64,000 nt of DNA from Balanoglossus misakiensis (taxonomy: Eukaryota; Animalia; Hemichordata). This document shows positions 17,769-53,982 of this stretch, piece after piece (position 1 is the first letter of the stretch; the number at the start of each line of letters is the position of its first letter). The stretch spans positions 9,207,778 through 9,271,777 of the forward strand of contig CM082597.2 of the NCBI GenBank assembly GCA_040954595.2. Direction: 5' to 3'. Position numbers and translations under genes: made by a program. The notes beneath the pieces were generated by a model. It searched no databases, was not told the DNA's origin, and saw only the letters and a list, made by a program, of their open reading frames with translations.

Positions 17769-17773
17769 TCAGA

Positions 17774-17783
17774 TGGCGCCCAA
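17774..17783 (+). promoter_or_regulatory. Primer-binding-site-like motif
   Basis: TGGCGCCCAA 5 nt after the LTR end; resembles a tRNA-Lys-type PBS. Confidence 0.6.
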
Positions 17784-20517: not shown

Positions 20518-20521
20518 TTAA

Positions 20522-23500
20522 GGGAGCCAATGACCAGCCGATACCCTTCATAGGCATTGTCGAGGCAGTCATGTCCTTCCCCTTGATGATTTCGGTGATG
20601 ATCGAGAATACACGATTCCTGCATTGCTTGTACCAGACAACGAGTACAACAAAGTGGTGCCAGTGTTGATTGGGATGAACCTACTTGAATTGTACCCCAG
20701 GGCTTCAATCAAGACTCAGAGACGGAGAGGAGCCAGATTGTGTAGAATATCAGCTGTTGCCGAAGGAGTTTTCAGAAAGTTAGATGCTAGAGACCGTTTT
20801 GTTGGAAAGAAAGGTGACTTGGGACCTGTACGAGCTCTGATACGACACCCAGTGAAATTGGATCCAGGACATGGTACCACTATCTGGGGACGTGCCAGGA
20901 AAGGACTGCTGGGTGATCAGTATATTGTCTCAGTGGAGCCGACCTCTGAAAATTCAGGAGACTACACCACGAGTCCTGCAGTTTCAGTTTTGAAATGTCA
21001 ACAACACAAGTCGAAAGTGCCTGTGTGTGTGCAGAATATGTCGTCCACCCCAGTAACCATTCGACCGGGGGAGATCATAGCTAGAGTACATGTTGTCACT
21101 TGGTTTGGTAGACCAGATGAGTATGCTGCTGTTATGGAAGACGCCAGTGACACCGAAGGCAAGCCAACGTCATCAGGGAAGTCTGTACCGAGTTCGAGAA
21201 AGATAGTCCTGCAGAGTGGAATAGAATTCGACGTGTCCAATCCCCGATAGATGAGATGCAACTGAAGAAAGTGTCTGATCTTCTACAGCAGAAAGAAGAA
21301 GTCTTTTCCAAACATGAAAACGACTTAGGATATAGCTCCGTCGAGAAACACAAGATTCGCTTGTCCGATGACCAGCCGATCAGAGAGAGACATAGAAGAA
21401 TCCCACCCGCCATGTATGAGGAGGTGCGGCAGGTTTTGAGAGGAATGCAAGAAAGTGGAGTAATTCGAGAATCTCATAGTCCTTGGGCGGCGCCCATAGT
21501 ATTGGTCCGCAAGAAGGATGGTCAGACCCGACTGTGTATCGATTATCGTAAGCTGAATTCTCGTACAATTCGTGACTCGTACGCACTGCCAAGAATCGAT
21601 GAGAGCCTAGAAGCCATTGGAGGAGCAAGGTGGTTTTCCTCTTTGGACCTAAAGTCGGGATACTGGCAGATCGGAATGTCCGAAGAAGATATCGAGAAGA
21701 CAGCTTTTTTGACACCAATGGGATTTTGGGAGTGCACCACCATGCCCATGGGTTTGACAGGGAGCCCTGCCACATTTCAGAGATGCATGGATAAATGTCT
21801 AGGAGATCTTCACTTGAACGTTTGCCTCGTATACCTCGACGATATCATCATTTTCTCCAAAACGTTTGATGAGCATCTGGAGCGTTTGTCACTAGTTCTT
21901 GACCGACTCAGAGAGAAAGGCTTAAAACTCAAACCGAGTAAATGCCAGCTGCTTAGATCCAGAGTCAAATACTTGGGCCACATCATATCCGAGAATGGCA
22001 TTGAGACTGATCCTGACAAAGTTCGCGCCCTGAAAGAATGGAAGGTACCCACCTCTGCTAGAGAAGTCAAAAGATTCCTAGGCTTTGCTGGATACTATCG
22101 ACGCTTCGTCGAAGGCTACTCCAACATTGTGAAGCCCTTGAACGAGTTGACAGCCGGATTACCTACCAAGAGAAAAGCCAATGGTAGAAGCCGTGAAAGA
22201 CCATGTAGATTGCCACCGTTTGAATGGAGACCAGAGCATCAGAAGGCGTTTGACACAGTCATAGAGAAACTTACCAGCCCACCCATATTGGCGTATGCTG
22301 ATTACAGTAAGCTGTTCGAACTCCATACCGACGCAAGCCACACTGGATTGGGGGCTGTGTTGTACCAGGGAGATGGAGAGCAGAAGAGAGTCATCATGTA
22401 TGCTAGTAGAAGTCTGTCTCACAGCGAAAGGAATTACCCGGCACACAAACTGGAATTTCTCGCACTCAAGTGGGCGGTGACCGAAAAGTTCCATGATTAC
22501 TTGTATGGAAACAAATTTCTGGTAGTAACAGACAACAACCCACTGACTTATGTCAACACTACCGCGAAGTTAGACGCAACGGGTCATAGATGGCTAGCCG
22601 CTCTATCAACCTATGACTTTCAGCTGATGTATAGACCAGGAAAGCAGAACAGCGACACTGATGGACTATCACGCCAAGTTCCTAAAGTTCCACAGCGCCA
22701 GAGATTTGAGAGAAGAGAAGAAGTAGATACGAAGATGTCAGAGCCAGAAGATGAAGCAGTCCTCCTGTCGGAAGAAGTAGTTCGAGTGATGTGTCAGACC
22801 CCTCAGGTATCCAACCATGCTTGGGTGGAGGCGATAACCTGTACAGAGGACTCAGTTCCCAAGAGTCTGGATGAACCCCTGTCTGTTCCCGGTGTAGTGT
22901 CGTTACCGGCTATCAGTGGAAGAAACTACAAGAGGAAGATCAGATGATAGGAAGACTGCGTTGGTATTTGAGCAGAGGACACTCTCCAACAAAGGAAGAG
23001 AAGGAGAAGGAGACGAGTTCCCTTGTTGCTGCATCGAGAGAATGGAACCGAAACTGCTTTCGAGAGGGAGTATTGTACCGAAAGAGACAGAGTCCCGAAG
23101 GAAAGCCGCAATATCAGCTAGTCTTACCAGCTCATTATCGTGGTACCGCACTAGAGGGAATTCACGATGATGTAGGCCATCTAGGACAGGAACGAACACT
23201 GGAATTGTTACGAGCCCGATTCTATTGAGCATTCATGAGTAGAGATGTAGATCAGAAGATCAAGACATGTGAACGATGTACTAGAAGAAAACTACAGAGC
23301 AATCAGCAGGCCACAGCTCAGATGGTTAGTATCCAGACTACTCAGCCCCTGTAACTAGTCTGTATGGACTACCTTACTGTTGAGGACTGAAAGGGAGGAG
23401 TAGGGAATATTTTGGTCATGACGGATCATTTTACCCGTTATGCCTTGGCGATCCCGACAGCGAATCAGAAGGCCAAGCCTACAGCCGATCATCTGTACAG

Positions 23501-25087
23501 ACACTTCCTAGTTCATTATGGTTTTCCCAACAAACTGCACTCGGACCAGGGAAGAGATTTTGAATCTCAGGTGATACGTCAGCTCTGCGAGATCACTGGG
23601 ATAGAGAAGACCCGCACTACTCCGTACCATTCCCAGGGCAACGGACATTGTGAAAGGTTCAATAGGACGTTACTTGATATGTTGGGGACGCTGTCGCAAG
23701 ATAAGAAGTCAAACTGGAAGAAGTACGTTGAGCCGCTCGTCCACGCGTACAACTGTACACAGAACGATGCCACTGGTTTCTCGCCGTACTACCTTATGTA
23801 TGGAAGACATCCAAGACTTCCTATCGACATATACATGGGTTTACAGTCAGAGACGGAGGGAAGTGGATATGGTAGTTATGTCAGTGAGATGAGAGATCGA
23901 CTAGCCGACGCCTACAAGCTGGCTGCAAGCAAGTCCAGAGCGAGTTCTGCCCAGAACAAGAAGAGATATGACAAGAAGACCCAGGAGGCTATGTTGGAGC
24001 CAGGAGACATAGTTCTTGTGAAGAATGTTAGCATCAGAGGGAAACACAAAATCGCCGACAGATGGGAACGCCAGTGTTACCGAGTGATCCGAAGAATCAG
24101 CCCTACACCGTGAAATCTGAAGGACCTGATGGAAAAGAGAGAACTTTGCATAGGAACCTGCTTTTACCATGTAGTACTGTGCCTATACAGTATCCAGAGA
24201 GACCCATGAAAGCATGCAAAGAAGAAAAGATCAAAGGAGAGATGGATGGACCCAGAACTCGTAGTCGAGCGAAGATAGAGAAACAGAAAGATCAGTATGA
24301 CGATGACTCAGATGAAGAGACTGATGGAGTATGGAAGATACAAGTTCCCTAGGAGATTGGTGGAGTCAAACAGTTTGGTACACCTTTCAGTCAAACTGAT
24401 ACGCTGGTGGATAGTCCTAGAAAGAGCTTTGCAACTTCTCCATTGCTGAAGGTGGACACTCCTCAGAAATCTCCAAATGGTAGAAGAGTGTATTTTGAGA
24501 GTCCAGAGATGCAGTTGTCACCGACTGAGGATGAGACGAGTATTGTGTACGAGACTGAAAATGAAATTTCTGGTGGACCACAGACATCTCCAGGTGTCTT
24601 GTCTCCAGATGCACCAGTGTTTGTCCCGACAGAGCAGTCATTACCAGAAGAATTGGAGCAGGAAGAGTTGTCTGATGATTCAGCAGTATCAGATGCCGTT
24701 GATGATCCTGATAGACATCCTTCTATCCAGATCGATAGAACGCTACCCAGAAGGTCCCATCGAGTTCGAAGACCGCCTGAGAAGCTGAACCTTTCTCATA
24801 TATGTACAGGAAGAGATGGTAGAACAGATGTCGATGAAGAATCGCTGAGAGAACTCTTGTCGAGAGTTATGGTCCTCTTGAGGAGGGAACGAGTGACGAG
24901 CAGCGGTCTAGAGAAAACAGATGCTACAGAATCTGGAATAGATGCAGATTTCAGTAGATGTGCCGGTTCCGAAGATTTGCTACCAGATGCAGACCAGGAA
25001 CAAGCTGAGAGGATTGATGCTTTGATCCAGGCGAAGAATGACGTGCACTCGAAGCTATCCAGTGGTACGTGCCCATGGTTGACGTGA
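20522..25087 (+). pseudogene. pol: Pol: protease C-terminus, dUTPase-like domain, RT, RNase H, integrase and long C-terminal tail; several stops and frameshifts
   Basis: RLCIDYRKLN, LDLKSGYWQ, YLDD, TDASHTGLGAVL, HDDVGHLG...C..C, HSDQGRDFES, GHCERFNRTL, RRSHRVRRPP. Stops at ~21250, ~23228, ~23354, ~24352. Confidence 0.93.
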
Positions 25088-25558
25088 AGCACTGTGTTGA
25101 GGCATTATTTGCACATGGCCAGGCTGATCCGATGTCGAGGAGGTACTGCTTTGGGATAGTTTTTCATAAATCTTTATGCCTTCTCTGATGAAAGATTTGA
25201 TGACTTTTCATGAGTGTTTTGTCTACTTGTATATGTGAGTCGTTCTCTGTGCTTTTCACCCAAAGTATCGTGGGAAACTTTTTTGAGAACATATTTATAC
25301 TCCATACCTTATACTATAAAGTCATTGTAGAGATATGTGTTGAGTCGATTTGAGAACATGTGAACTGGAACTATGTGTTGTGTAACCATAGTGAAGGTGT
25401 AGCATGTGCAGATGACCGTTTGATATACAAATATCATTTGATATAGAGATATCATTTGATATAGAAGTATAGTTTGATACAGAAGTTTATGTCCTGTAAT
25501 TCATGATTGCCTTTTGAATTTTTACAGTCGGGACGACCTTTTTGTGACCAGGGGAGAA

Positions 25559-26686
25559 TGTAGAGACTTTAAATCCTCGTGGTATTTAGTCACTGTTTGG
25601 CGCTATAGCCATTGCCACGATCAGAGCCGCATCCCTGTATTATTCACATATATCTCATTTTTGAACATTGGGCATCATGTGACGATGAGAAAGTAGTTCT
25701 ATGTTGTGTTTGACTGTGTATGTCTGTACGATGATTTGATGACGAATCACCATTACTTTTCTGTAGACTGAAGTATTTTCTGTAATTTGATGGTGTAGTT
25801 ACAAGCTCACATGATGTGCGCTATTATTTTTACAAATTCTAGCGAGCTTGTCATATATCACTACGCACTGTCAAGGGTCTATGGCGTGATGGCTGATAGT
25901 GAGTAGTTTTTGTAGAGTTTCGATCCGAAGTTCGAGAGAGTTTTTGTTGAGTCGATCTGGCGCAGATTTTGGCCAGAGTGTGCGGACCGAGTCGTGAATG
26001 TCCCTGGAGCGGTTCGACTATTCACCAGTTCCAGAGGACAAGAGCGAGATATGATATTTTGAGAACTTTCTATTTCGATTTTTGATATTGGAATTGATCG
26101 AGAACTTTCCAGTTGAACTAGCTAGGTGAGTTGTACGTGCTTTCCGATCTCGCTCGATGTGATCCGAACATTGCCCGAGCAGATTCCAGAACTTTTCCAG
26201 ATGGCTGCCGCTATTTCTGAGGGTTTCGCCGATTTGTTGCTGATGTCCCGAACTCGACGTTTCTGAGGGTTTCGCCGATTTGTTGCTGATTTTGCTGAAC
26301 TTGACTTTCGTGTATCGTGAGAAGAGTTTCGTCGATCGTCGTTGGATTGCAGAACTGTTGTCTACACAGTGAACAGTGCAGCTGAGTATACATTGACAGA
26401 GACAGTAGAGACATTGAACGCTTTATTTCGTAGATAGTGTGCATTTTTCTAGAGTTTCTTGTTGTGCTTTGAATGTGTTTCAGAGAGATATTATAGTGTT
26501 TTCTGAGAAAGAAATCAGTGTGTGGTGTGTCTGTTTCAATCCCCCTGTCTGTAAGAATGCTGATGCTGTATCTGTGTACCAATGACAGCAGCCAAACCTC
26601 AGACCGATGCTCAATTGAAAGAGAGAGAGATCTTTTGCTGTAACTCTGTACTTGTTAGACCATTGTCCGGCAAGAAACGAGTTACA
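25559..26686 (+). repeat. 3' LTR
   Basis: Preceded by PPT aggggagaa (25550-25558); ends gagttaca, followed by the CACA TSD. Confidence 0.97.
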
Positions 26687-36112: not shown

Positions 36113-39100
36113 CTTGTATGGTGGCGCTGTTGATCGGCAGCCTCTCTCTTTCACTCTCTCAGATTTTATCGATTTTACCGTTTTAACCTGTGTATTTCCC
36201 GTCGATTTTACACATCCTGCTTTTTAAACATTTGCTGCCTTGGATTCTTCACAAAATTTGGAACTTTACCATGTCTGGAAGCAGTATTTACTCAATTATC
36301 AATGCCTGGCAGTCCCTGGGTGTAAGTAGAAGTTCTTTCAATATGGCGACGACGTCCCTTCGTTCAACTATGAATACCAAGCTTTTTCGACCACGCGGGC
36401 GTAAAGCGGGTTTCAAGCATCCAAAGCCAAGGTATGGAATTCAGACGATCATAAGTAATCACCGTAGGCCTACTGGACATATTCGACATAATAATTCACG
36501 CACAAGAGTACTTCGTCTGATTCCGGTCTCTTCACAAGGTAATTTATTCAACGAACCGGCTGCCATTGAAACTGTAATCACCACTCGCTCTACACAGACA
36601 CCTGGACACAAGCGAACTTCTACACTTGTCAATATTCCAAGAATTTCTTCCTGCTTCAACAAACTCAATCTTAATGCTGCTCTGTGGAATGCCCGTTCCC
36701 TGAATGGTAAAATTGGTGCTATAGCATCTACTTTGCTCGAAGGGAAATTGGACATAATGATCATAACTGAGACCTGGCTGAAGAGTCAGTTTGATCCTGT
36801 CATTGCTGAACTCCATTCTACAATCAGTGGGTACAATTTTTACCATCAGTCCCGCTCTCAGCGACGAGGGGGAGGGGTAGCTGTTTTGGCTCGTTCTAAC
36901 CTAAGACTTGTGGAAAAAGGATCAACGCCGTTCCAGTCCTTCGAATCGTTACACGTAACATTTAAATCCTCAAGTCAGACTCTCCGCATAATCGCCGTCT
37001 ACCGTCCACCAAAATCGACAAAAAATAAGGCGACCACAAACGATTTCATCTCTGATTTTTCCACTCTTATGGAAACAGCCGTACCTTCCTCGGGCCATCT
37101 CTTAGTTGCTGGAGATTTTAATTTTCCAGTCGAGAACATGAGTTCTCCGGACACAAGTAAGTTGGTCGACCTTCTTCAATCCTTTGGCCTACAACAGCAC
37201 GTTAAGATACCAACACACAGCAAAGGCCACACATTGGATCTACTTATAACACGTTCATCAGAGCACCTGCTTCACTCAATCAGATCCGACGACTCGCTAA
37301 ACTCTGATCATAGTATTTTATATTTTGGACTTAATGTTCAGCGATCGCCCAACACCAAGGTAACAATTACACAACGTGACTTTCGTACAATGAACACTGA
37401 TAAGCTGGTCGATATACTCTCATCCGAAATGCCCAATCTTCCCAGCATTACCAACCCAGACGATTTGTACCATTATTTCCATGGAGTTGTTACCGACGCC
37501 CTTGATGAGGTCGCCCCCGTCAAAAGCAAATCAGTCCTAAATAAAGTGCGTGCACCATGGTTCTCTGAGGATTTACTAACTATGAGAAAAGAGTTACGTC
37601 GACTGGAAATAAATTGGCGTAAATCAAATTTGGAAATCGATCGCCAAATGTTCATTTTTAAGCGCATGGAATATTCACGCCGATGTGACGCATTAAAAAC
37701 AGACTATCACCGGATTAGAATTGAAGACGCAGATAACAAGAAATTGTTTGCGATTGTTGCAGAACTGTCCGATTCGAGAAAAGCATTATCCAACTCCATT
37801 CCGAACAACGTACCAACAAAAGAAATTCCATCAGCCTTCATGAATTATTTTGAAAACAAGGTGTCGCAACTCCGTGACAGGATTGGTCCACAACCGCACA
37901 GCTGTGAGGCTGACATAACACCGACTCATACTTTCGCGGAATTTGACCCAGTGTCACCTGGGGATATAATTGCGTTAGTGAAACAATCACCACCGAAATC
38001 TTGTGAACTCGACATTCTACCATATGGAGTGTTGAAGAATTGCGTACACATCTTAGCACCTTTCCTTGCTGATCTTTTCAACAATTCGCTCACAGCTGGC
38101 ATCGTGCCGAGTCATTTCAAGTCAGCGATAATTCGTCCATTGTTAAAGAAAGTTGATCTGGATCAGAACATTCTGAAGAACTACAGACCGGTTTCAAACC
38201 TTCCGTTCTTGTCAAAACTCCTCGAGCGTGTAGTCGTTCAGCAACTGAACAGTCACCTCACTAAATTTAGTCTTTTCACAAAGTTTCAAAGTGCTTACCG
38301 TGCTAATCATAGCACGGAAACTGCTCTCTTGCGTGTCCACAATGACATCATGCTTGCCTTGAATAACAAACAGGATGTAATTCTTATCATGTTAGATTTA
38401 TCAGCGGCGTTTGACACTATCGATCATGAAATAATGCTACAGAGACTACATCATCGTTTTGGAATAACTGGTAACACTTTATCGTGGTTTCGTTCGTACC
38501 TCGTTAATCGCCAACAGTGCGTCAAGGTTGGATCTGCATCATCCCCAAGTTCTCGCATGAAATATGGCGTTCCACAAGGATCTGTTCTAGGACCTCTCAT
38601 GTTTACACTCTACACTGCACCTCTGGAAGACATCTTCGGAAAACACGGGATTGATTGCATGATATACGCGGACGATACGCAAATTTATGCCATCTGCAAC
38701 AGCCCTAACGATGTTCGCAATAACATTGAGCTCTGCGTCGATGATATCCGCAGCTGGATGAAATCTAACATGCTTGTACTGAATGATGATAAAACTGAAG
38801 TTATTCACTTTTCATCACGTTTAAAATCTAATGTGACAACATTAGACTGTCTAAGAATCGGACAATGTGACATAATTCCTTCAGTTTCAGTTAAAAATCT
38901 CGGCGTTATTTTAAGTCAGGATGGTAGCATGTCTGATCATATTAGTAAGCTGTGCAAAAATGGTTTCTTCTCTTTGCATAGAATAGCTAAAATTCGTAAT
39001 CTTCTTGACAGATCTACAACTGAGAAACTAGTTCATGCATTTGTAACGTCTCATTTAGATTACTGTAATAGTCTTTTGTTTGGTATCCCGAAGGGACATC

Positions 39101-39619
39101 TAGCTCGACTTCAGTCTCTACAGAATGCTGCGGCGAGGCTAGTTACTCGTACGCGCAAGTCCGATCATATCACACCCATACTCAAAGATTTACACTGGCT
39201 ACCGGTAGAGGCCCGCATCAGTTTTAAAATTCTCTTGCTCACATTCAAATGTATCAGTGGTAAGGCACCCGCCTATTTGACTGATCTTTTACATTTATAT
39301 GTACCAGCTCGAGAACTGCGCTCTAGTGTTCAATTCTTTTTAACTCATCCTCATGGTAAATTTAACAAAACCTACGGACAGAGAGCTTTTTCAGTTTGTG
39401 CGCCCATTTTATGGAACAATTTACCCCTTGATATCAAAACCGCCAGAAGTGTCAATATTTTTAAGCGTAATTTGAAAACATACCTTTTTACTCGGTTTTA
39501 TGTGTAACGTGTTCGATTGTGTCCTTTTAACTATTTTTACCAGCCTTGTATTTTTTAATCTACTCTTTTAGCTATGTACAATGCGCTGAGACGTATGTGT
39601 AGCGCATTTTAAACAATTC

Positions 39620-41384: not shown

Positions 41385-41720
41385 TCACTCGTCCAATTCC
41401 ATAACTGTTGACGCTCTCTCCTTCATCCATATTTCTCCATCTTTAGTTCTGCTAAAGATAATTTTGCCGTCCTTCTTTTCGACCACGTAACTGCAGTTGT
41501 CCGAGTCATCCGTGTGACTGGCCGCAACCTCATCGACCCACTGCTCAGAGCCATCTTGCCTTTTCACACAGATCGTATATTTGCCCGGAGGGGTCGCGAT
41601 GTTGACATAGTTACCGCTGGCAATCACGTGACTCTTGACATCTTGATTGGCGTCTGTCAGTGTGACCTGAATGGGCTCGCCAGTTCCGTTTGCGATGCTA
41701 GTAGTGTGCTGGTTACCCAT
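41385..41720 (-). CDS. Small 111-aa beta-rich protein with N-myristoylation motif, unknown function
   Basis: Clean ATG-TGA ORF starting MGNQHT (MGxxxT) with alternating beta-strand pattern; splice acceptor ttcctacag ~35 nt upstream suggests a spliced 5' UTR. Confidence 0.65.
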   Translation of the reverse strand: MGNQHTTSIANGTGEPIQVTLTDANQDVKSHVIASGNYVNIATPPGKYTICVKRQDGSEQWVDEVAASHTDDSDNCSYVVEKKDGKIIFSRTKDGEIWMKERASTVMELDE

Positions 41721-41730
41721 GTATCTAAGG

Positions 41731-42620
41731 TCAAGTGCTGTGGGCCCTATATTTTCTGTAGGAATAAATCAAATGTGGTATACTACAAAAAGTATTGAAA
41801 CTAGTGAACGTATGGACAATCCGATGACCCTTACAGATCTTGAGAATAACGGTCGGTTTCTTTGAATGCAATAGATTATACGGCAAACGTACATGCGGAA
41901 GTGTGACCCAAAAGTGACCGATATCACTAGGAGGCTTGAATGTATTTAGGCAAGCCTTATTGTGAATCGCAACGTATTTCTCAATATGTAACATGTTCAA
42001 TATCATGTTGATGTTCACTGTTACTTTGGACCTTTATCCACGAAAGGATTATTTATTTTGAGTTCTTCAAGGGTCTGTTTCAGTGTTCTCATCATACGGG
42101 CATGACTGGCTGTGGTAACGCAGCTGTACCGTTGTGTGTGTATGGGGGGGGGGGGGTTGGCTGATTACCTCCACGGACAGCTGCGGGACAACCACCTTAC
42201 TAATAGTGCAGTTGCAACGACACGTCTGGTGTAGGAACATTAGAACGGCAACAAAGTGAGCGCAGTTCAATAAACCCGCTGGAGTGTAATGGAGACCTCA
42301 CACAACAGGAGTGAGTGAGGGTCAAAGTCCACTGCCGTAGTGTTATTCCGTGTACTCGGGTAGCACTCCTTGGAAAATCGGCTGGAATACGTAAACAGAC
42401 CAGTGAGTTTGTTCACGAAATGACTTTTGGGACCAGAAATAATCAGAGCACAGGCTTGTATAGGTCGTTTTATTGAATTACGCTCGCTTTGTTTTCTGTT
42501 GCCGTTCTTTCCACCAATAATTCGTAGTCAATTTCACTTGTGCGTGTTACGACCGGTCCCGATAAAATAGCCGAGTATGGGCCATCATTCATACGATTCA
42601 GCTCGAAAAGATATAGCATC
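41731..42620 (-). pseudogene. Decayed ORF divergent from the 512-aa gene
   Basis: Minus strand reads MLYLFELNRMNDGPYSAILSGPVVTRTSEIDYELLVERT..., then frameshifted pieces continuing into ORFs 42270-42067 and 42018-41731. Confidence 0.3.
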
Positions 42621-42708
42621 GCATGACAATCATTTATCTATTTAAAGTCGCTAATGTACGTATATACGTGGGCATAGAGAGGGGGAGAGAGTGAGAAAGA
42701 GAGACAAA

Positions 42709-44247
42709 ATGGCGTTCACATACTTACACTTTAATATTTTTTCGGTATGTCGGCTAACGTACATAACAGTCCACAGTCAAGAAGAAAAGAAACCCAAAGT
42801 ATCCACATTGACAGGCATTCGGAAAAAGCGCCCGAAACCACACTTATATTCTTACGAATCTGTCACACATTTAGGAGAACATATGGCTCGAAAGAGTTCA
42901 AGTATTTTCGTGACTTTGTTCGACAGACAAGTATGTGAAGGCGGATTCACTTTAGACCATTGGTCTTTCACGAAACCTCCTCAAGAACAAATTGTGGAAG
43001 TCACGAAAGTTGATCATACTTTAGGGTTTTGTGGAACCAATGGATCTTCCGTGCGTCCGATCATTGAATTAGTATATGTTGGTACGGATATTTTGCCCAG
43101 GAAATTTTCTAAACGAGCCACCGAAGACCCCGTCCATCTTTCTGTGAAATCAGTACACGCTATAAAGGCGTGGCTTGGGAAACATTTACCAGAAAAGTCA
43201 TCTCCTTGTTATCGTTGGACAGCTTGTAATGTAGCTATCCCGACGATAGCGATGACGTTGCTAGCTTCGGAAAGATCAAATTTACGGTGGACCAAAAGCA
43301 CCTTTGAAGATTACATGGACTTATGCTGGTTTCTCGCGCAACAGGTGTATGGATCTCAACCAAAGACAGTGCTGCATTTACTCAATATAATTGGCGTTAT
43401 ATCACACATATCTCCACTGCAGCCCGAAAGTCTTCTATTAGATCATGTAAAACCAGATGGGTCTTATTCTGGTTCAATATTGGAGACATCTTTATTTGCC
43501 GTCGAGTTACTCTTGGCTGCGTTTAAGATGAGATATAGAGCGAAACAGTTTAATGGCGTTTATGACATATTTCACCCCGCTTTAATCGAAATACAATATG
43601 CTGACGACATTGAGTATATTTACCCGTGCCTGATCGCAAAAAGTACTTTAAAATTAATTGAGTTTGGAAACCAGACAATTTATGTCGACTTTGGACAAGA
43701 TTTGTTCATAAAGAGTCTATTACATGAGTTTTGTTACCATTCAAATGTGGATACATTTCCGACCTCTCCCTTGGGATATACATTTCTGCCCTTACAAATG
43801 TGGTTTTCTCAACTAAGAGTAAAAACTCTGTATTATATGCGTAATGATTGCTCCAAACCGTCAGCGGTTGTTTTGCGTGGAACAACTATAGTTGAAACGC
43901 TGCGCGTTCGGTATGGCGTTCGAGTAATGCCGACAGACCAGTTTTACGCGGATAGCTTTGGACAACTAGTGAAACGCCTGTCGCTACCTGAGGTGCCGTT
44001 GATTACGGAAGTACATGTAGATCATTGCGAAGATAACAGCCTCCCAGCGACAGAGACACATCCGTGTTGCTTGCATAGGCTGTATGGTAACGCGCGAATG
44101 TTTCAGAACCATAAACTAGATCATTTTCTGCGGGACGAGAAGTTAGACGCGCGTACACATATGCTTAATCTAGTCACGTCTCATACAAAAATGTCACATG
44201 TCATTAAGTTTTTCGTGACGTTCCTACGGGAACGGGATACAAAATAA
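42709..44247 (+). CDS. Orphan 512-aa protein, putative viral gene
   Basis: Uninterrupted ORF, ATG in AAAATGG context, basic NLS-like KKPK..RKKRPKP, AATAAA overlapping the stop (44243-44248); no TE motif recognised. Confidence 0.75.
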   Translation: MAFTYLHFNIFSVCRLTYITVHSQEEKKPKVSTLTGIRKKRPKPHLYSYESVTHLGEHMARKSSSIFVTLFDRQVCEGGFTLDHWSFTKPPQEQIVEVTKVDHTLGFCGTNGSSVRPIIELVYVGTDILPRKFSKRATEDPVHLSVKSVHAIKAWLGKHLPEKSSPCYRWTACNVAIPTIAMTLLASERSNLRWTKSTFEDYMDLCWFLAQQVYGSQPKTVLHLLNIIGVISHISPLQPESLLLDHVKPDGSYSGSILETSLFAVELLLAAFKMRYRAKQFNGVYDIFHPALIEIQYADDIEYIYPCLIAKSTLKLIEFGNQTIYVDFGQDLFIKSLLHEFCYHSNVDTFPTSPLGYTFLPLQMWFSQLRVKTLYYMRNDCSKPSAVVLRGTTIVETLRVRYGVRVMPTDQFYADSFGQLVKRLSLPEVPLITEVHVDHCEDNSLPATETHPCCLHRLYGNARMFQNHKLDHFLRDEKLDARTHMLNLVTSHTKMSHVIKFFVTFLRERDTK

Positions 44248-44260
44248 ACTTCTGTATAAA
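44243..44260 (+). promoter_or_regulatory. PolyA signal of the upstream gene and TATA box of the next gene within a 50-bp spacer
   Basis: AATAAA 44243-44248; TATAAA 44255-44260, ~40 nt before ATG 44298. Confidence 0.6.
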
Positions 44261-44297
44261 TTTAAACGTGTAGTCAGAAATTACATAGTACAAGAAA

Positions 44298-47175
44298 ATG
44301 GCAGGGTTAGACCATCTATACCAATTTGCCGTCCTGCTTCCGTTTCACGACTCGATCTGTAAGTATACGGGTGAACCGAAATCGCCAAAAGACTTTCATT
44401 CCGTGTACTTCTGTACAGGTGACCAATCATCGTCTACTCATTGCGAGGTTTACGCAGTTCCACCGGGTGAAAACGTTCCCTGGAAAATGTGTGATATTCC
44501 AACCAGCACCAATCTCGTAGAAAAATGCAACAGAGGCAAAAATATCATGATATCAAAATCTGCGTTTAGAAATGCCCAATGGAAACGCGGTGCGTTCCGA
44601 AAGAAGTCCCGGAAAACACCGCAAAATTTAGGCTCCGCCCAAGCTATAATGGCTATCGCAAACTTGTATTATACTCGTGCGATCTGTACTGAAGATATAC
44701 ACGTACAAGTTTTTATACAGGAGAAATATGACATATTCAACGAGGGTGGATTCCGGATAGAACTATTGCATGATTTTTCGCACGATATTGACCGAGAAAT
44801 TGGTGAATGCCTGGTACAGACTCATACAAACTTATCGATCTTTGGTAAGAACAGATTACACATTCGGTTTTGTTTAGGGGTTAGGGTTAGGTGTTAAGAT
44901 ATCTATTTTTAGAGTGATGAATCCAACTATATTATTACGGAACGCTACATGGATTAAACTTAAACTCTGACTTGTTGATGTTTTCTGGTTTATGCACGTA
45001 ATAGGATATCCCAAGGTCCTACACTACAAAGATCCCGTCCCAGCCAAGGTTAATAAAGAGTCGGTGATGACAGCTTTGAATACTCCGGACAACTGGAGCG
45101 TTTTAATTGAATTTAACCCCGTATTGCGAGACGTACAAGCGTATAGTTTACAAGATCTAAACGTGTGTGCCGAGTGGGGTCACAGAGGTACTTCGAACAT
45201 TCTGTTAATTTTTGCGATGGACAGAGATCGAGAAAATATGTTTGTGTTGTTATGGGCGTTACCGGCAAGTGACATTCGCAAGGCGTATATGCCAAATTCC
45301 GCCGACACAGAGGTTGTGATTTCTAATGATGTATTACAGAATGCCACGTTCGTATTTCACGTGTTGCATGCAGCGTCACCTTTACATAGACGCTGTTCAT
45401 ACGCCAGTAAGTTTCGACTGAAGAGAGATGCTATCAGTTCCAAACGAGCTATTGCCATGTACCCAACTTACAACGAAACACATGCCCACGTGTTGGTAGA
45501 GTGGAAACAAGATCGTTGTCAGTATATGCGAAATGGTGCACGTATTTTATTCGCGTACAATATTAACAGTAATTCGAACGCCATCATTTATGTTAAAGCC
45601 ACGCCCAGTTTTTTACCGCGTAAAATAGCAACGTGTGAAATTCCCAATGATATATTACGCTCTGTATCAAATGAGACAATCATTCCGCCAGGAATCTTTG
45701 CGGAGGCGCATTTTTTAGAAACTGCGTGGGACTGGAACGACGAAATACCGACGGTCCAATTAAATCCATTTCAGATTATATACGCAGTGAAGGCTTTGTT
45801 TTCGGTGGGATTTGGTCAAGACAAGGATTGGAATCATCGTTTTGCCGCAAGCAACGCGATTTGTTGGCCGTCTGATGACGTCATTACCACAACAGAACAA
45901 TCATTCCTAAATAGGTGCTTTAAATCGCCCACATTTTCAACATGGACAGACGTAGAAAACGACATATTGTGTCAGGGCGACCGATCATATTCAAACCTAT
46001 ACTGTCACGCTGACAAATGCACATATTGGTTAGCTCATCAGAGAACTTTCGTGGTTGTCGAGTCCAAACCATCGATTGAGTCTTATTTGACAACCCCTAC
46101 TCGAGTTTTATACGTCGCAAACAAGTGGCATCCCGGAGCGGGGATAGCAGTATATTCGTGGAAAACTCGGGATATTCCGCGCCCACTTGCTATTATCGAT
46201 AGATCTTCAGAATCGTTTGACAATATTTGGTCGATTTTGGGTAATTTTTCACGCGAGTGTATTGCTTTGCGCAACATACCAATGAATGCCAACAGAATGC
46301 AGACAGACTTACACTTTGAGGGTCTACACGCGCAATCCGTCAAGCATTTCGTGGAAAACCCCGATTCGAAAATTTTCTTTGACGCTGGTTTCTTGTCATC
46401 GGATTCCAAGTGGTTCCCGGAAGCGTTCGCTATCTGGGAATATCCTCAGATCGAGGGACATGCGTGGGGGTTTGTCAACATGCTACAACGAGCCGTTTCT
46501 GTGTACGCCATGTATCAGAAGTATGCATGTGGTTTTACCATAGAACAACCGGTGGCAAAACTAATGCAAGAAAAGATAGAAATTGCATCATGTGATCCAA
46601 ATGCGGCATGTCTACAAAAGATAAACACTATGGTCCGTAATGAATTCGAGAGAGCAGAATTGGTCTTCTGGTCGGCGTTGGTTGAGTTCAGACAAGATGT
46701 TAAACATTACGTTACGGGATTACCGGTGGAAGTTAAATTCAGTTCAGGTGACATAGAAAAATCGAACAAACTATGTTGTTTCACTTTGGTTGGTACACAC
46801 ATACGACCCTTTTTGATTGCGCACCTGGACAAAGACGAAAGTTTGGTTGAAATGGTAGTTGATCTAAAGGTGCTTAACTGTAATTATTTCAACCATGCAA
46901 TGAGTTCTAACCAATTCTACGTTAACTTCGCGTATGGTATAGACACTTTCTCGTCCAGATGCCAACAAATGAACCAGTTTGAAATACTGGCTTGTTTATG
47001 GGCGATGGTAGAACAACGGGGTCACACCATGAACGAAACATTGGTTAATCTGTTGAAGCGTCACATGGTAAAATACTTTGAACAAGACCTGACGTGCCCT
47101 GCCACTACACTTTCAGGCTTGCAGGTATGGGCGAAAGAGTGGCTGGATTCTCTCATAATTGACACATCCCTGTAA
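44298..47175 (+). CDS. Orphan two-exon gene, predicted 905 aa (exons 44298-44844 and 45005-47175), putative viral gene
   Basis: Donor G|GTAAGA at 44845, CTGAC branch-like site at ~44967, acceptor ATAG| at 45004. The phase-1 join rebuilds GGA and fuses the 199-aa and 727-aa ORFs in frame (NLSIFG-YPKVL). Confidence 0.75.
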
Positions 47176-49432
47176 TTGGCTACTGCCGCCAAACAAGACC
47201 ACCGCCCGGGGATATATCCGTTGGGGATACACTCGGCGGCCGTTGAGGGCGTATGTATTCCTGTCGGACACAATTCCAATGGACTAACATAGTTATATGT
47301 CTGTTAGTACACGTCAGCTGGCATAGCCGGAAAACACGACCAGGCTACCTGCAGAAAGAGTGGCTGGATTCTCGCATAATTGACACATCCCTGTAATTGG
47401 CTACTGCCGCCAAACAAGACCACCGCCCGGGGATATATCCGTTGGGGATACACTCGGCGGCCGTTGAGGGCGTATTATTCCTGTCGGACACAATTCCAAT
47501 GGACTAACATAGTTATGTAATAGAGAACCACCGACCCCCGAGGTGGTTCTTGGTTTCGATTCGCCGAGGGCCGCAGGCCCGAGACGATTGGAAACCAAGA
47601 ACCACTGAGGGGGAGGTGGTTCTCTAACTTAAACCACGATCCCCCACAGACATTGTCACCATTGGAGCTTCGTGTACCACAAAGACGTCGTTTTACTCAA
47701 CGATTCAATAAAATGAACGAACAAAAGCTTATCAAAAGAGGCTTATTCTTCATTGCTGACTGTGAAATTTGGTTGGCCACCCCTTTTCCTATAAATGAAT
47801 CATGTCGTGGGCAGGTAGTTCTAGACCGCCCTGCTGGGCCTTACAAGATCGCCCACGCTTGACAGGTGTTACTCTAAATGTTCATACTTACGTGTCGGAG
47901 TGATATGCTCATTTCAAGCACTAATTTGCATCAAATTAAACTTTACAGGTGTGTTACGTAGTGTATTATGGGAAGGGTTACAGCTATTGGGGTTTTGCGT
48001 GCACATGGTAAGCTTACGCGAAAATTTTCTAGGCCAAATGCAGTAGGCCTACATGTAAGTGTCACGTTTTTTTTATTTTCCTTCAAATGTCCATGAAATC
48101 GATCTGAAGATACATGTAGTTCCGATCTATATCATCTGCGAAAACAAGCGGCTACATGTTGGTAAAGCAAAAACCGGGTCACAATGCTCTACATGGTACT
48201 ACTGCCCGTCTGTGTATTGGCCTCCCTGGCTTTTGAACGAACCACTCTCTACGAGCCACAGCGGCAACGCGTCTGTATGGTAGCGATATTGGTGAGTAAC
48301 TCATCTGCGAAAAGACTTGATACCGAAGTGAATCCGTCCGACATTACAAACCCACGTCTGGTGAACAGCAACAAAAAGTAAGCACAACTTTGCAAGGTAC
48401 GCGGGTTTTGTTAAACAGTAGGCCTAAAACAGCCATCCTTGTTACATGTCGGTAGTGAAGCAAAATCGAAGTGAAGCATCTGGTTAGAGTAATACAAGCA
48501 AATCTGGGGATAATGTGATTTAGTATAATTTTCTAGAAATTTGTAGTGAATTTATTGCAACGTTAGTTTGTTTCTGGTGAATTGATTTTTGTCTATTTTA
48601 TACTTTTATTATCATGTTATGAAGACTCTCGAGAGCCACCAAGACATTAGCTTTGTACGTCAGTAGACAAAACTGTGAATGTGAAGCATTGAATGAAATG
48701 ATCCGGAGACTGTCGCATATCCAGTTCGCTTTCAATTAACATAAAAATTACTCTATTCAAATGAAATGTACTTTGAATACAGGTATAGAAGTAAATGTAA
48801 TTATGCAAATAAAGCATTGTGTATTTGTATTTTTGTTACGACAGGTGAGACTGAGTCCTGCGGTAGTTCTAGAACCCCCGGAGGTAGTTCTAGAACTACC
48901 CGGGACTTGGTTTTAAACCTGTGGTTTTGTGTGAGACGGAGGTTCTCTCAGTGAATGACTTGTCTATTGAATAGTGTGACGTCACGATCGTGGTTTAAAT
49001 GTCTGTTAGTACACGTCAGCTGGCATAGCCGGAAAACACTACCAGGCTAACCGCAGAAAGAGTGGCTGGATTCTCGCATAATTGACACATCCCTGTAATT
49101 GGCTACTGCCGCCAAACAAGACCACCGCCCGGGGATATATCCGTTGGGGATACACTCGGCGGCCGTTGAGGGCGTATGTATTCCTGTCGGACACAATTCC
49201 AATGGACTAACATAGTTATATGTCTGTTAGTACACGTCAGCTGGCATAGCCGGAAAACACTACCAGGCTAACCGCAGAAAGAGTGGCTGGATTCTCGCAT
49301 AATTGACACATCCCTGTAATTGGCTACTGCCGCCAAACAAGACCACCGCCCGGGGATATATACGTTGGGGATACACTCGGCGGCCGTTGATGGCGTATGT
49401 ATTCCTGTCGGACACAATTCCAATGGACTAAA
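47133..49432 (+). repeat. 221-bp tandem repeat, ~3.7 copies, second copy split by an insertion
   Basis: gaaagagtggctggattctc starts at 47133, 47354, 49056 and 49277 (period 221). Confidence 0.93.
47517..48998. mobile_element. 1.48-kb non-autonomous hairpin-ended element (Helentron/Crypton-like structure)
   Basis: Inserted in agttat|atgtctg of the repeat with no clear TSD. Left ~105-bp hairpin agagaaccacc...ggtggttctct, then ttaaaccacgatc inverted-matching gatcgtggtttaa at the right end. Confidence 0.75.
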
Positions 49433-49451
49433 CATAGACAGTTACTAAACT

Positions 49452-49463
49452 TTTATTAATAAA
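49452..49463. terminator. Back-to-back polyadenylation signals for the convergent genes
   Basis: TTTATT (49452-49457) abuts AATAAA (49458-49463), between the 905-aa gene (+) and the terminase (-). Confidence 0.6.
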
Positions 49464-49670
49464 TGTGTGCTTACCGAATAAAATATCTCTTAACATTCAA
49501 AATGTGTGTATGGTTATTTCGATCGAAGCAATTACAATTGATAAAAAACAGACCTCTGTGTCCTGATTAGCGCACTTTCACCTTGGGATGGTCAATGCAA
49601 GGTTTAAAAAGTCACAGCCAAATGGCGTTACAACTTGATATGTCCTTGAGCTCCTTTCGTTATATGTCTG

Positions 49671-51659
49671 TTAGTATAAGTCAGCTGGTATATCCGGAAA
49701 ACACGACCAGGCTAACCACAAAATGAATGCCATGGCCAAATCGTCCCGTTTATTTAAAGCCTTTCCATTAAAGGACATTTTCCCGTCCACTTTAATACTC
49801 CGTTTAAAATCGCGCAACTGCGACAGAAGAATTTCCATCATCGCATTTTGATCGTCTTGTGTCGGGGGCCTTGACATTCCTGAGGAATTCGTGAGACACT
49901 TGCGTACACTAATTAAATCATTTGCGAATGATACTAACCCGTTTGTTACCATTAACTGAGCTAGGTGAACTAGATTTGCTTTATTGCGCGTCCAAATGCC
50001 AGTTTTCATCTTTCCGTCCCTTCCGGTTTCTGTTTCGAAGTGTGTCAATATACCTCGTTGGTCGAAATAATCCCCTACCTCCCGAGACATTGCAGCAGAA
50101 TGGGCGTGTGACGTGTTTCGTTCTATATAGATTCGAACAGGATACTCCGATAACTTTGGGTATTGCTTGAATGCATATTCCACGGACTGGATGCACAAAA
50201 TGGTATGCTTGTGTAATAGATTTTCAATGTCACGCTGCGATTTAGCTGCCACGTGATCTAGAGCAACGATCTACAAGCGAAACAGACAAGGAAAAGTGGT
50301 TAAATCATGTAACACCTCTATACGAAACAATTAAGTTATTTTTGTATAAGAGTGAGCCTCATATGTCAAACAAAACATTTAGTGTAGGATGTTATTACTC
50401 AAAACGTTCCATCTCCAACAGCACGATGTCGACCATTTAAAAAGCAGGCGAAACGCCTTCTTCGATTGGAAATACAGTATGGATAGACAGTTTTTCTCAG
50501 AATTTATTAATGGGATCATTCAAAGAGAAGGTCATCTGTCCAGCAGTTTACTTATACGGTTTCTTGGTCGAGAGCATGGATGTCTCTACAAGGGCGTTCA
50601 CGTCCACACGATAGTTGACTTCAAGATGGAAAAAACCATCGCCTGTGAGACGTGGCGTATTTTGTCGTGTCTGGAAGATTCTGTGTCTGCCGAACAAGAT
50701 GGGTGTTTGTGCGCGTTCGAAGCAGTTTTACACAGGGCAATTGAAATGTTTTCTATAACGGTCAATGACCAGACAAACGCGTTATACAGGCGTGAAACCG
50801 CCAGGGAACTTCAGTGGATAATTGATCACATTGAAAAGACGATCATACATTTGCTTTCTCTGCATCAATTGTCAACGGACGAATCACCGCTATTAACAGC
50901 GGCATTACACATAGCTGGTATTGTAACGTGTGCAATCAGACCTCCTACCGCCATTCAATTAGAGATCCCACGTGACCGTCTCGTGATACCCAAAGTAGTG
51001 TGTAATTTGTTCAACTTAAGATCAACTGAGACACAGATTCCTTTACTCTGAGAAACAAGCATGGTATATATTGGAACAAATTAACGCAATCTACTTACAA
51101 TACGTTCATTTTACCACATTTAATTCCGGCAACTAGTCCTATGCCTGACACATTTGATGGTGTGGGATCGATTACTAGTCTGAGTCCAGATGTTAAGAGG
51201 TGCTCGCTGACGTCAACTCGTTTTTCGACCAATTTATCTAGCGTTATGTCGGCAAACAGTTTCTCGCTAGATGTATCAATAAAATCTGCCACACCGAGGC
51301 ACTCGCGTTCATAGGTTCCTTTTGCCAAGATGTCCATTAATATTCTGACTGGATTTCCTTCGCTAGAATCAATGTGCCTTGGAACCAGGTGGAGTTTATG
51401 GATACATACACCATGTACACCTTTCGATACACATTCTGAACACATGTACGTTTGAACGATCGACTTGACAAGGGGTTCCCCCCCCCCATGATATGTCCAA
51501 CAATTTATAGGACCAGTGTTCTCTGTTTGCCATAGATGAAGTAAATAAAACCGACACTGTTTTAGGCTGAAAAATGGGCGCAGAAGTGACCAATGAATTA
51601 CGTTTTACCCACGGAAACTCGTCCACCCAACCAAAACTACAACCGGCTCCTCTGGCAGC
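49671..51659 (-). CDS. Herpesvirus-type DNA-packaging terminase large subunit (UL15/UL89-like), last two exons 51659-~51104 and 50270-49671; one frameshift in a homopolymer; Walker A exon not found
   Basis: AARGAGCSFGWVDE (Walker B; cf. herpes GIRGQDFNLLFVDE), VLFTSS (cf. IIFVSS), TYMCSEC...CIH, LVIDPTPSNVSGIGLV (cf. YVDPAFT..SGTG), IVALDH, IYIERN (cf. VEGN), FNGK...RDDLAMA (cf. SGK..SDDL.VA). Acceptors tttcag|GCT and cttgtag|ATC. Confidence 0.88.
50389..51051 (+). CDS. 220-aa orphan protein nested antisense in the terminase intron
   Basis: Intact ATG-TGA ORF filling most of the 50271-~51103 intron; TATAAG at 50345-50350. Confidence 0.75.
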   Translation: MLLLKTFHLQQHDVDHLKSRRNAFFDWKYSMDRQFFSEFINGIIQREGHLSSSLLIRFLGREHGCLYKGVHVHTIVDFKMEKTIACETWRILSCLEDSVSAEQDGCLCAFEAVLHRAIEMFSITVNDQTNALYRRETARELQWIIDHIEKTIIHLLSLHQLSTDESPLLTAALHIAGIVTCAIRPPTAIQLEIPRDRLVIPKVVCNLFNLRSTETQIPLL

Positions 51660-51685
51660 CTGAAATATATAATTATGAATATATA

Positions 51686-53960
51686 CAGTGAAACCTGACC
51701 TTACGGACACCTGACAAAACCGGACACCTCCGATTTACGGACACTTTGTTAATTCCCAAATTTGTCTCATTGTAACCAATGGGTCTGCGTCCTGATCAAT
51801 CCGGACATCTCTAAAATGCGGACAACGGACAGCTGTTCGATACAAAATGCGTAGTTTCTATTGAAATCAACCCAACAATTACGGACAGCTGCGTGATTGT
51901 CAGACATGACACTTCGACTTATCACTCACTTCACACATCAGTGGATCAAAGTTTTCAGCTTATCACAACAACTTAGACGTGTTGACTAACCTCAAATAAA
52001 AAACACATTAGACGATCAACACGTTCCTTTTGTTAAAGCTACTGAAAGAGGCGGCGATTTGTGATAAACAAATTTCCCAGAGCCGCCTATTTTACAGCAT
52101 GACAGAATGGTTTCCGCCATTATCTTTATGGTAAAGACCAGGCTTTGGATTTGCTGCAGTTCCGTAGCCAACATCTTTCCTCGGCGGAGTTTGGTGTGGG
52201 GTTGGAAGCTTCAATGAAATTGACTATTATTCACTCAACCGCTCGGCGCTTGTTTACCTGGTGTCGCGACGTCGTGCGAGGCTGAGCTTGAGTGATTTGC
52301 GCGTCATTCTGTCCTGACCTGTTTTTAGGTTGATGTTGTTCGGTGCATTTATTTCTTACTTTTTGTAGAGTTCATGCAGATGTAAGGCATCAGAATTGAC
52401 AAAATCAGTAGCTTTCATCAGGTGGACGTTGATTTCCCCGCAGCGCAGGTCAGAACTAAAATCGGCCATCATTATCATAATTTATGCAACCTTAAATGCA
52501 GGGAGTTTGTTTCTTCTGCGTTATGGTCGAGCCATTCTGAGCGGGATGAAGCCAACAAAGTGAAAGGATACAATTCTTTTTATTTTCTCATGTCAATCAC
52601 AATAAAATGAAATAACCAATTTGTCTGTGCATGCCGACAAAATTACCAGCAGTAATTTCATTGGTTGTATGATTTCAGAATCTGTCAATCGTGCTGCTAA
52701 GTTATTCACGCACCCATCGACTTCTGGTGAACAAAACATGTCGGTTTTTCTTTTGATATGGGAGAAATAAGCTATAAAAGGAGGGAAAATTTACGTTGGC
52801 AACATAACATCTTCTGACCACAGAGCGAACAACATGTCTTCTGTCAAACGCACGCGCATCGAACTTACTATCGATCGTAAAGTTGAAGTTATTCGGGCTG
52901 CAGATTCCAGAAAGTTGAGCTGTCGGCAACTTGCAGTTGAGTTTAGCATCGGCAAAACTCAAGCCAGCACTATTCTGCAGAATAGAGACTCTATTTTGCG
53001 AGAGTACGAGTCCAATTGTGAAGGCAGTCGAAAGAGAATCTGTGTTCGCACTGAGTACGAAGAATTGAATGCACTGGTATGGGAATGGTTCCAGAAGAAG
53101 TGAAGTCAGTCAATTCCGCTGTCCGGGCCGATGATCCAAGAACGGGCGCGTCTCTATGCAGAGCAGCTCAACAAACCCGAGTTTAAGGCGTCGAACGGAT
53201 GGCTCGAGAGCTTCAGCAAACGAAACAATCTTACGTTTCACAAAGTTAGCGGGGAAAGTGCCGATGTTCCCCAAGAGACTGTCGATTCGTGGGCGGCACG
53301 ACTACCTCATCTGATCGAAGGTTATTCTCCACGCGATATCTTCAACATGGACGAGACCGGCGTTTTTTACCGCGCACTCCCTGATAAGACGTTTTCAGCC
53401 AAGGGTGAAGACTGCATGGGCGGGAAGAAGTCGAAGGATCGAATCACCGCTGTCCTCTGCACGAACATGGACGGGAGCGAAAAACTCAAGCCCATCGTTA
53501 TCGGAAAGGCAGCTAAACCAAGGTGCTTCAGCAATGTCAATCTCAACGCACTTCCAGTTCTATGGCGAAACAACAAGAAGGCGTGGATGACAACGGAACT
53601 TTTCATAGACTGGCTTCGAGATGTCGACAAGAAGATGCGGCAACAGAAACGGAAAATTCTGATGTTCGTCGACAACGCCCCAACCCATCCTCAGCGTGCT
53701 GTCTGTCTTACCAACACGAAGTTGATTTTTTTCCCTCCGAATACGACGTCGAAACTGCAGCCACTCGACCAGGGGATTATCGCGGCCATGAAGAAAACAT
53801 ACCGCAAGCGACTTCTCCGCGCCGTTTTGTCGAAAGCCGACGATGACACCTTAGTTAGAATGAAATCGCAAGAACTGTCAACGTTCTCGATGCCTGCCAC
53901 TGGATCGCTCGGTCGTGGAGTGATGTCACCAGCGAGACCATTTCGTACGGTGGACGATAC
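51686..53960 (+). mobile_element. pogo/Tigger DNA transposon, right end missing
   Basis: TA followed by TIR CAGTGAAACCTGACC..CGGACAC with repeated cggacac motifs; inserted 26 bp from the terminase splice acceptor; transposase downstream. Confidence 0.88.
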
Positions 53961-53982
53961 CGACACTCCTCTGCTATGCTAA
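52834..53982 (+). pseudogene. Tigger/CENP-B-like transposase (HTH psq, CENP-B HTH, DDE_1)
   Basis: LTIDRKVEVI..LAVEFSIGKTQASTI, FKASNGWL, FNMDETG, NKKAWMT, VDNAPTH, QPLDQGII; in-frame TGA at 53101-53103 and a frameshift near 53850. Confidence 0.92.

Follow-up and report, generated by a model that had tools for sequence, protein, structure and literature searches.

A broken and probably integrated herpesvirus-type terminase locus among the transposons of a probably invertebrate genome

We analysed a 64,000-nt stretch of genomic DNA (the window) and identified in it a virus-derived block of about 9 kb. This block carries the two final exons of a terminase gene of herpesvirus type, an open reading frame (ORF) nested between these exons on the opposite strand, and three further long frames (ORF1 to ORF3). 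The remaining window is host repeat, in which a Pfam scan recognised reverse transcriptases of long interspersed elements (LINEs), a Gypsy element whose Gag is of PNMA type, and the transposase of a pogo/Tigger element. An earlier note on this DNA had described an intact block of viral genes; the element is instead a broken fragment of an apparently multi-copy family, and the note had missed the conserved opposite-strand gene in the second terminase intron. The terminase sequence is located on the minus strand (51659-51100 and 50270-49671), in open minus frames at 51396-51734, 51095-51604 and 49671-50270. The features of the block that concern the terminase are as follows.

42508-51685, no strand: the whole virus-derived fragment, about 9 kb; both ends are truncations and not natural termini
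51660-51685, minus: remnant of terminase intron 1, 26 nt, with a TTTCAG acceptor at the UL15 intron position
51100-51659, minus: terminase exon b, 560 nt, with arginine finger, Walker B, cysteine-rich lid and the first nuclease aspartate; two frame breaks
50271-51099, minus: terminase intron 2, 829 nt, with a GTAAGT donor and a polypyrimidine-TAG acceptor
50389-51051, plus: putative nested gene in intron 2, 220 aa, opposite strand, conserved in the metagenome contig L001
49671-50270, minus: terminase exon c, open frame of 199 aa, nuclease domain with IERN and DD motifs

Pfam searches with the minus frames of the window gave weak matches only, to DNA_pack_C in exon c (E 0.07) and to Terminase_6N in one frame (E 0.14). 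An exhaustive phmmer search of 1.84 billion proteins with the 126 aa piece encoded at 51098-51475 returned 12 relatives (E <= 0.001) with 31-54% identity, every one exon-sized (183-318 aa). Two of these pass the Pfam cut-off for DNA_pack_C, and in a wider alignment 8 of 26 rows match DNA_pack_C at E <= 0.05 while no other Pfam family was matched. When a profile of the 12 relatives and the window piece was searched against PDB, HSV-1 (herpes simplex virus 1) pUL15 was found alone (6M5R/6M5V, best E 2.3e-9): all four sequences at E <= 10 are HSV-1 pUL15, aligned from Walker B to the first nuclease strand. By this profile comparison the terminase is homologous to the ATPase-nuclease subunit pUL15, as expected of Herpesvirales. 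A low-confidence predicted structure of one relative (P0004) was compared by Foldseek with a viral structure library, and alloherpesvirus terminases were placed at ranks 1, 2, 3 and 5 (E 5e-5, 1e-4, 1e-2 and 5e-2; 22-24% identity), with no malacoherpesvirus match in that search; these model-based matches may be taken as a lead to kinship and not as a placement. Single-sequence PDB searches with the terminase pieces found no terminase, the exon c profile reached pUL15 in PDB at E 1.1 only, and a word-indexed search for exon c among longer proteins found nothing. Pattern scans of IMG/VR, sensitive to close relatives only, found no relative, and of the metagenome pattern scans one gave no relative and another led to L001. 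The Terminase_6N match, although below significance, raises the question whether the gene is a tailed-phage terminase from a prophage or a contaminant. However, no terminase piece matched PHROG (nor did any window ORF below E 0.07), tblastn with the terminase gave no phage match, the PDB profile search contained no phage terminase, and the spliceosomal signals are conserved in L001. With no phage terminase matched in any of these searches, a phage origin is extremely improbable.

The exon structure could be compared with published herpesvirus terminases. Exon b starts in phase 0 after the TTTCAG acceptor at 51659, and its third codon encodes an arginine 11 residues before the Walker B glutamate. 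In HSV-1 pUL15 this region comprises R346 and Walker B at 352-357 (PMC10649544), and the third codon of the second UL15 exon of duck enteritis virus, mapped by reverse transcription PCR, also encodes arginine (PMC3079670), indicating that terminase intron 1 lies at the UL15 position. The sequence which the earlier note had taken for a terminase gene is of herpesvirus type, but the window holds only the 3' exons b and c, and there are two breaks in exon b. The exon with Walker A is missing; since the window has no L001-like sequence outside approximately 49700-51684, exon 1 and the UL92-like gene of L001 are both absent from it. The first break is a frame change in a run of ten G (51478-51487) and the second a frame change at most about 25 nt before the donor at 51100, giving an exon of 560 nt compared to 567 nt in the unbroken exon of L001. 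The homopolymer break could be a sequencing error, but two breaks in one exon make decay more likely. Similarity to the 12 relatives ends at V-S (10 relatives), V-C (one) or V-R (one), 12-14 residues past the SGxG motif, as expected if the relatives' predicted proteins read through a phase-0 donor. The nested ORF has no TATA-like word, and its profile found nothing in PDB.

The metagenome contig L001 (10.6 kb) carries an unbroken relative of the terminase. It has the order of the window, in which exon b is followed by a GTAAGT donor, then by an ORF on the opposite strand, and finally by an acceptor that leads into exon c; intron 2 is 676 nt long and at the same position. Identity between the two is 69-75% for exon b, 34% for the nested ORF (E 7e-31) and 58% for exon c. 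The L001 exon c passes DNA_pack_C (26.5 bits, cut-off 22.8), and an opposite-strand ORF upstream of exon b passes Herpes_UL92 (34.5 bits, cut-off 21). At first, second and third codon positions, identity between window and L001 reaches 0.67/0.78/0.34 in exon c and 0.45/0.59/0.23 in the nested gene; the two pieces of exon b give 0.77/0.88/0.48 and 0.70/0.85/0.35. Third positions are least conserved in all four comparisons, indicating that exons b and c and the nested gene evolved as protein. Predicted splicing in both the window and L001 gives a three-exon terminase layout with two introns, exon 1 itself being unseen. In a tree of 14 terminase sequences, which took in the window and its relatives and no reference herpesviruses, mirusviruses or phages, the window, L001 and P0002-P0004 group together (support 92/94, short of the level that the tool stars), separately from the remaining nine. 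The pUL15 profile match, DNA_pack_C in L001 and the flanks of transposable elements (TEs) support what the earlier note had proposed, a divergent herpes-type lineage in a TE-rich animal genome.

Other features of L001 were also noted. At L001:85-919, at the stop codon of the UL92-like gene, lies an AT-rich element whose long inverted arms are 66% alike and whose ends are flanked by TTAA; this suggests that L001 is a second integrated copy elsewhere, struck by a host transposon. An ORF of 534 aa (L001:3731-5335, minus) stands tail to tail with exon c; it has no Pfam, PHROG or PDB match and contains a motif which we take to be primase-like. Because the window has ORF3 in its place, the gene order differs. 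Two or three paralogous ORFs (585, 658 and 182+ aa; L001:6427-10623, minus) have no Pfam match and by eye are presumably BTB/BACK/kelch-like. The contigs that carry more distant exon b relatives (P0006, P0011, P0024, P0025) are long (176-579 kb) and may represent either entire viral genomes or scaffolds of a host.

Three exons are reported for alloherpesvirus terminases (PMC12567609, PMC13030845). This layout, in ictalurid herpesvirus 1 (IcHV-1), salmonid herpesvirus 1 (SalHV-1, ORF72/80/82), esocid herpesvirus 1 (EsHV-1) and ranid herpesviruses, is common to the Alloherpesviridae and the element, and the family also gave the best structural and sequence matches. The ORF numbering of SalHV-1 implies one ORF between exons 2 and 3, like the nested gene of the element. 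In contrast to L001, which has a UL92-family gene in intron 1, alloherpesviruses are reported to have the primase and Allo64 there; identity to them is also 22-24% only, and the host of the element is probably no fish or frog. Orthoherpesvirus terminases are reported to have two exons (PMC6466031). Intron 1 of the element is at the same codon and in the same phase as in the orthoherpesvirus UL15/UL89/ORF29 locus, and both have opposite-strand genes in the intron. Rat cytomegalovirus R91-R94 and bovine herpesvirus 4 ORF30-33 lie in the terminase intron in opposite orientation (PMC3079670), and UL92/ORF31 is a late transcription factor of beta- and gammaherpesviruses (PMC12197705); as in these two gene groups, the UL92-family gene of L001 stands beside the downstream exon. 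The element differs from the two-exon orthoherpesvirus genes in its second, gene-bearing intron in the nuclease region, and its orphan genes match no orthoherpesvirus Pfam family. It also differs from mollusc and lancelet virus terminases, which are described as intronless (PMC2994540), in having two introns.

Integrated lancelet herpesviruses (the B. floridae element and BelcheriHV-1) resemble the element in being herpes-type DNA amid the repeats of an invertebrate genome, although BelcheriHV-1 is reported at one or two copies in contrast to the multi-copy signal of the element. The earlier note considered integrated herpes-like elements rare; in the available literature they are already published for invertebrates, from lancelet, starfish and ribbon worm. 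Some of these published lineages, embedded in invertebrate chromosomes, are, like the element, divergent from the named families and are described as integration-prone, and their DNA polymerase places them between Ortho- and Malacoherpesviridae. The element may belong to one of them. The literature searched contained no description of a multi-copy lineage, probably of invertebrates, that combines three terminase exons with a conserved gene in intron 2 and UL92 in intron 1. Teratorn, of which medaka has 30-40 and about 5 copies, and the Teratorn-like alloherpesviruses of teleosts are multi-copy and chromosomally integrated with near-identical copies, as proposed here for the element. Teratorn-like elements are characterised by a fused piggyBac transposase, terminal inverted repeats (TIRs) and a TTAA target-site duplication; no such transposase, TIR or duplication of the element was seen in the window, where its ends are absent; the adjacent pogo element was inserted into the virus, and the window copy is broken.

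An alternative is that the element does not belong to Herpesvirales but is mirusvirus-related or a duplodnavirus that is otherwise unclassified. It shares no more than 22-24% identity with the terminases of named herpesviruses, and UL92-like factors occur in other large DNA viruses. Like that of the element, terminase genes of Mirusviricota are interrupted close to Walker B, and the sites can coincide with those of alloherpesviruses; many mirusviruses also have a conserved gene, MING-1, in an intron at a fixed place within the nuclease region (PMC12768974); split mirusvirus terminases are also treated in PMC13595911. The split near Walker B is common to Herpesvirales and mirusvirus-related duplodnaviruses and does not separate them, and the nested gene is likened to MING-1 by position only. 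Against a mirusvirus origin, known mirusviruses are reported from unicellular eukaryotes (protists) and their genes are usually intron-rich, whereas the element sits among animal-type transposons and its long ORFs are intron-poor. Further, the IMG/VR pattern scans for close relatives found none, and UL92 adjoining exon b in L001 mirrors the beta- and gammaherpesvirus order. We therefore consider an origin outside Herpesvirales quite unlikely. By its sequence, the element would function as a packaging locus of the Herpesvirales kind; a place within Alloherpesviridae, or within the order at all, is unproven.

The left part of the block contains the three frames that the earlier note had listed as orphan genes.

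42709-44247, plus: ORF1, 512 aa; TATATA at -48, AATAAA overlapping the stop codon
44298-44897, plus: ORF2, 199 aa; start codon in a strong context, with TATAAA at -43; the part up to 44844 is probably exon 1 of a gene comprising ORF2 and ORF3
44845-45004, plus: probable ORF2/ORF3 intron, 160 nt, phase 1 donor and acceptor, predicted from sequence
44992-47175, plus: ORF3, 727 aa; ATG at 44992; probably exon 2 from 45005

The lengths of the three frames were confirmed, and their chance probabilities per start are 2e-14 (ORF1), 5e-6 (ORF2) and 5e-20 (ORF3). ORF2 and ORF3, however, are probably two exons of one predicted gene of about 900 aa. ORF2 has a GTAAG donor in phase 1 at 44845, and the similarity of ORF3 to its one homologue (P0001 from ENA; 36% identity over 99%, E 1e-138) starts at the glycine codon that would be interrupted by splicing to a phase-1 acceptor at 45005. 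The 160 nt between donor and acceptor have a GC content of 33% compared to 43% on either side, and the context of the ORF3 ATG is weak. The matching phase-1 sites, the low GC content, the weak ATG and the start of the P0001 similarity together point to a single spliced gene. Two TTAGGG words are present in the probable intron (44874-44886); telomeric integration was considered on this basis and rejected, two words being too few. The dense packing of TATA and polyadenylation signals described earlier holds for ORF1 (TATATA and AATAAA) and for the TATAAA of ORF2; no AATAAA was found within 300 nt of ORF3, and the nested ORF lacks a TATA-like word. Neither ORF1 to ORF3 nor the nested plus-strand frame matched Pfam, PHROG or NCBIfam at an E value under 0.07, a word-indexed search among proteins of 281-896 aa found no homologue of ORF1, the ESM Atlas held no usable match for ORF1 or ORF3, and the ORF3 profile found nothing in PDB. 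The fold model of ORF3 was unusable (predicted local distance difference test score, pLDDT, 31), and its Foldseek list was noise with no alloherpesvirus match; the twelve core genes of Alloherpesviridae include Allo37, 54, 56, 60 and 64. No orphan ORF matched a host or TE family, so that the status given to them in the earlier note stands in this respect. In ORF1, 5 of the 9 listed differences between contigs and window are synonymous compared to 22% expected (P 0.03), which hints weakly at function until recently; the list comprises 40 rows out of 465.

The block is interrupted and cut off by host DNA at the following positions.

47133-47517, no strand: left part of a tandem duplication; 221 nt unit with the ORF3 end, a spacer and a variant terminase end
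47518-48997, no strand: high-copy host repeat or repeats within the duplication; inner element with TTAAACCACGATC inverted ends
48995-49437, no strand: right part of the tandem duplication; Tandem Repeats Finder (TRF) period 221, 2.0 copies, 98% matches
51686-53982, plus: Tigger/pogo DNA transposon with CENP-B_N, HTH_Tnp_Tc5 and DDE_1 (in-frame stop), which cuts off the viral block

That host TEs flank and interrupt the block, as the earlier note stated, was verified by Pfam, repeat and contig evidence. The host repeat at 47518-48997 has a depth of 2000-4000 in sequencing run X1 compared to about 200 for viral DNA. A deep contig jumps from 47164 to 49364, indicating that the commoner copies have neither duplication nor insertion. 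The terminase 3' end in the tandem unit (47292-47350, 49659-49729) is 87-93% like the gene's own end, a divergence beyond the 1-2% between copies, which hints at a second subfamily. The Tigger TIR begins at 51686 after TA, 26 nt into terminase intron 1; TA is the insertion target of pogo elements. A second Tigger TIR was not found in the window at up to 3 mismatches. The Tigger contig (51947-53604) has a depth of 24 and 0 differences from the window. Host transposons are nested in viral DNA in the window and in L001 alike.

At both ends of the block, viral contigs depart from the window. A 1255 nt contig matches 42508-43013 and then continues leftward in non-window sequence, and a 3222 nt contig matches 49505-51685 and then continues rightward for 1063 nt in non-window sequence. 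Since one deep contig skips the insertion and others pass the two ends, the commoner form of the element is without the insertions of the window copy and longer on both sides; the window copy is a truncated member of an apparently multi-copy element. An ORF of 111 aa near the left end (41385-41720, minus) has an MGN N-terminus, a small beta-rich domain and a weak Y_Y_Y match (E 9e-4) and lies in a multi-copy stretch; it was rejected as part of the element (41385-41768) because the deep contig departs from the window at 42508, and it is probably a member of a host gene family that is not contiguous with the commoner viral form. Seven repeat-free viral bins have median depths of 204 and 486 in two runs, in which the lowest-depth nearby pieces have depths of 24-28 and 34-85, giving ratios of 7-8 and 6-14. 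Run X3, which is tiny, had no cover over the viral block. The deep contigs differ by 0.6-1.9% from the window copy (4 records), and the viral contigs of 1605 and 3222 nt are uniform in sequence at a depth of 166-193. The element thus appears to be multi-copy in its host.

The same data could be read as a lone dead insertion in the window next to a free, episomal or replicating virus in the sequenced animal, which would be the source of the deep, near-clonal signal. The uniform viral contigs imply that most molecules are near-identical, and the ratio of virus to flank is unequal between the runs (7-8x against 6-14x). However, a modest ratio in both runs fits several recent insertions too, and the viral DNA of L001 has likewise taken up a TE-like insertion, a pointer to a lineage prone to integration; we consider a free virus possible but less than likely. 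It was also considered whether the join of virus and host is an assembly chimera of a free virus with host repeats, as contigs depart from the window at both block ends and none spans a junction among the matches listed. This is contradicted by the TA that precedes the Tigger TIR, as its family requires, by the host repeat sitting cleanly inside the viral tandem unit, and by the window copy itself, which with its 0.6-1.9% difference from the deep contigs and its own breaks is not the majority molecule. A chimera is accordingly very unlikely. The chromosomal integration claimed in the earlier note is likely, resting on the assembly and the clean nesting of host transposons, while no junction-spanning read was seen.

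The flanks are of animal type, with an L2-type LINE (a type which we assume), a PNMA-Gypsy and pogo, their physical linkage to the viral block resting on the assembly. The Gypsy element (16640-26654) has long terminal repeats (LTRs) that are 99% identical and about 8.9 kb apart, a PNMA-type Gag and a frameshifted pol. The LINE (36187-39507) has an intact ORF2 of 1106 aa (endonuclease and reverse transcriptase), a (TAA)n tail and a high copy number. The ratio of observed to expected CpG (CpG o/e) is 1.06-1.20 in the viral frames, whereas the Gypsy element and three stretches of the flanks have values of 0.65-0.81. It is also high in the intact LINE (1.03) and in the Tigger element (1.24), indicating that a high CpG o/e marks recent DNA and not virus as such. 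Vertebrate CpG o/e is lower than the flank values of 0.65-0.81, which argues indirectly against a vertebrate host. The host is probably an invertebrate animal.

Taken together, we consider it probable that 42508-51685 is a decayed, chromosomally integrated fragment of a Herpesvirales lineage with the last two terminase exons and three or four viral genes, in a probably invertebrate host. Several points weigh against this interpretation. The terminase pieces of the window are themselves all below the Pfam cut-offs, the P0004 fold model is weak (pLDDT 44), and the Foldseek library may lack mirusviruses. Neither a capsid, portal or polymerase gene nor a transposase or terminal repeat belonging to the element was found in the window; profile scans of the window and L001 recognised no HK97-fold capsid, portal, protease, triplex, family-B polymerase or helicase-primase. 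The host phylum was deduced from TE content and CpG alone. All three runs are from one sample, possibly the window's own source, contig depth is no copy number according to the tool's warning, and no contig among the matches listed bridges a virus-host junction.

If this interpretation is correct, the working virus would have replicated in the nucleus and would have made a three-exon terminase transcript, from which one intron at the UL15 position and another with an opposite-strand gene were removed. The spliced product would be an ATPase-nuclease motor that cuts DNA and packages it into an HK97-type capsid. Entry of the virus into the germ line would have given rise to about 6-14 near-identical copies, most likely integrated in the manner of Teratorn. 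The window copy would then have been hit by the tandem duplication, the host repeat and Tigger, losing both flanks and gaining frame breaks, and would no longer be able to package DNA by itself.

More tentatively, and less likely than not, the element may represent a still-mobile, integration-prone family of invertebrate herpesviruses which combines an alloherpesvirus-type three-exon terminase and a conserved nuclease-intron gene, placed like MING-1 of mirusviruses, with a UL92 of beta/gamma type in intron 1, a layout that would be ancestral to Herpesvirales, in a host with an invertebrate counterpart of Teratorn. The window copy itself is a dead fragment. Most invertebrate herpesviruses in the literature considered are malacoherpesviruses, whose terminases have no introns. 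Five related sequences (the window, L001 and P0002-P0004) represent a lineage in which three terminase exons would go together with UL92 in intron 1; it would stand in the space that separates the families of fish, mammals and molluscs from mirusviruses, and would date the terminase intron layout and its linkage to a late transcription factor deeper than has been shown so far. With several near-identical copies in one host, the persistence of herpesviruses by chromosomal integration becomes directly testable outside fish.

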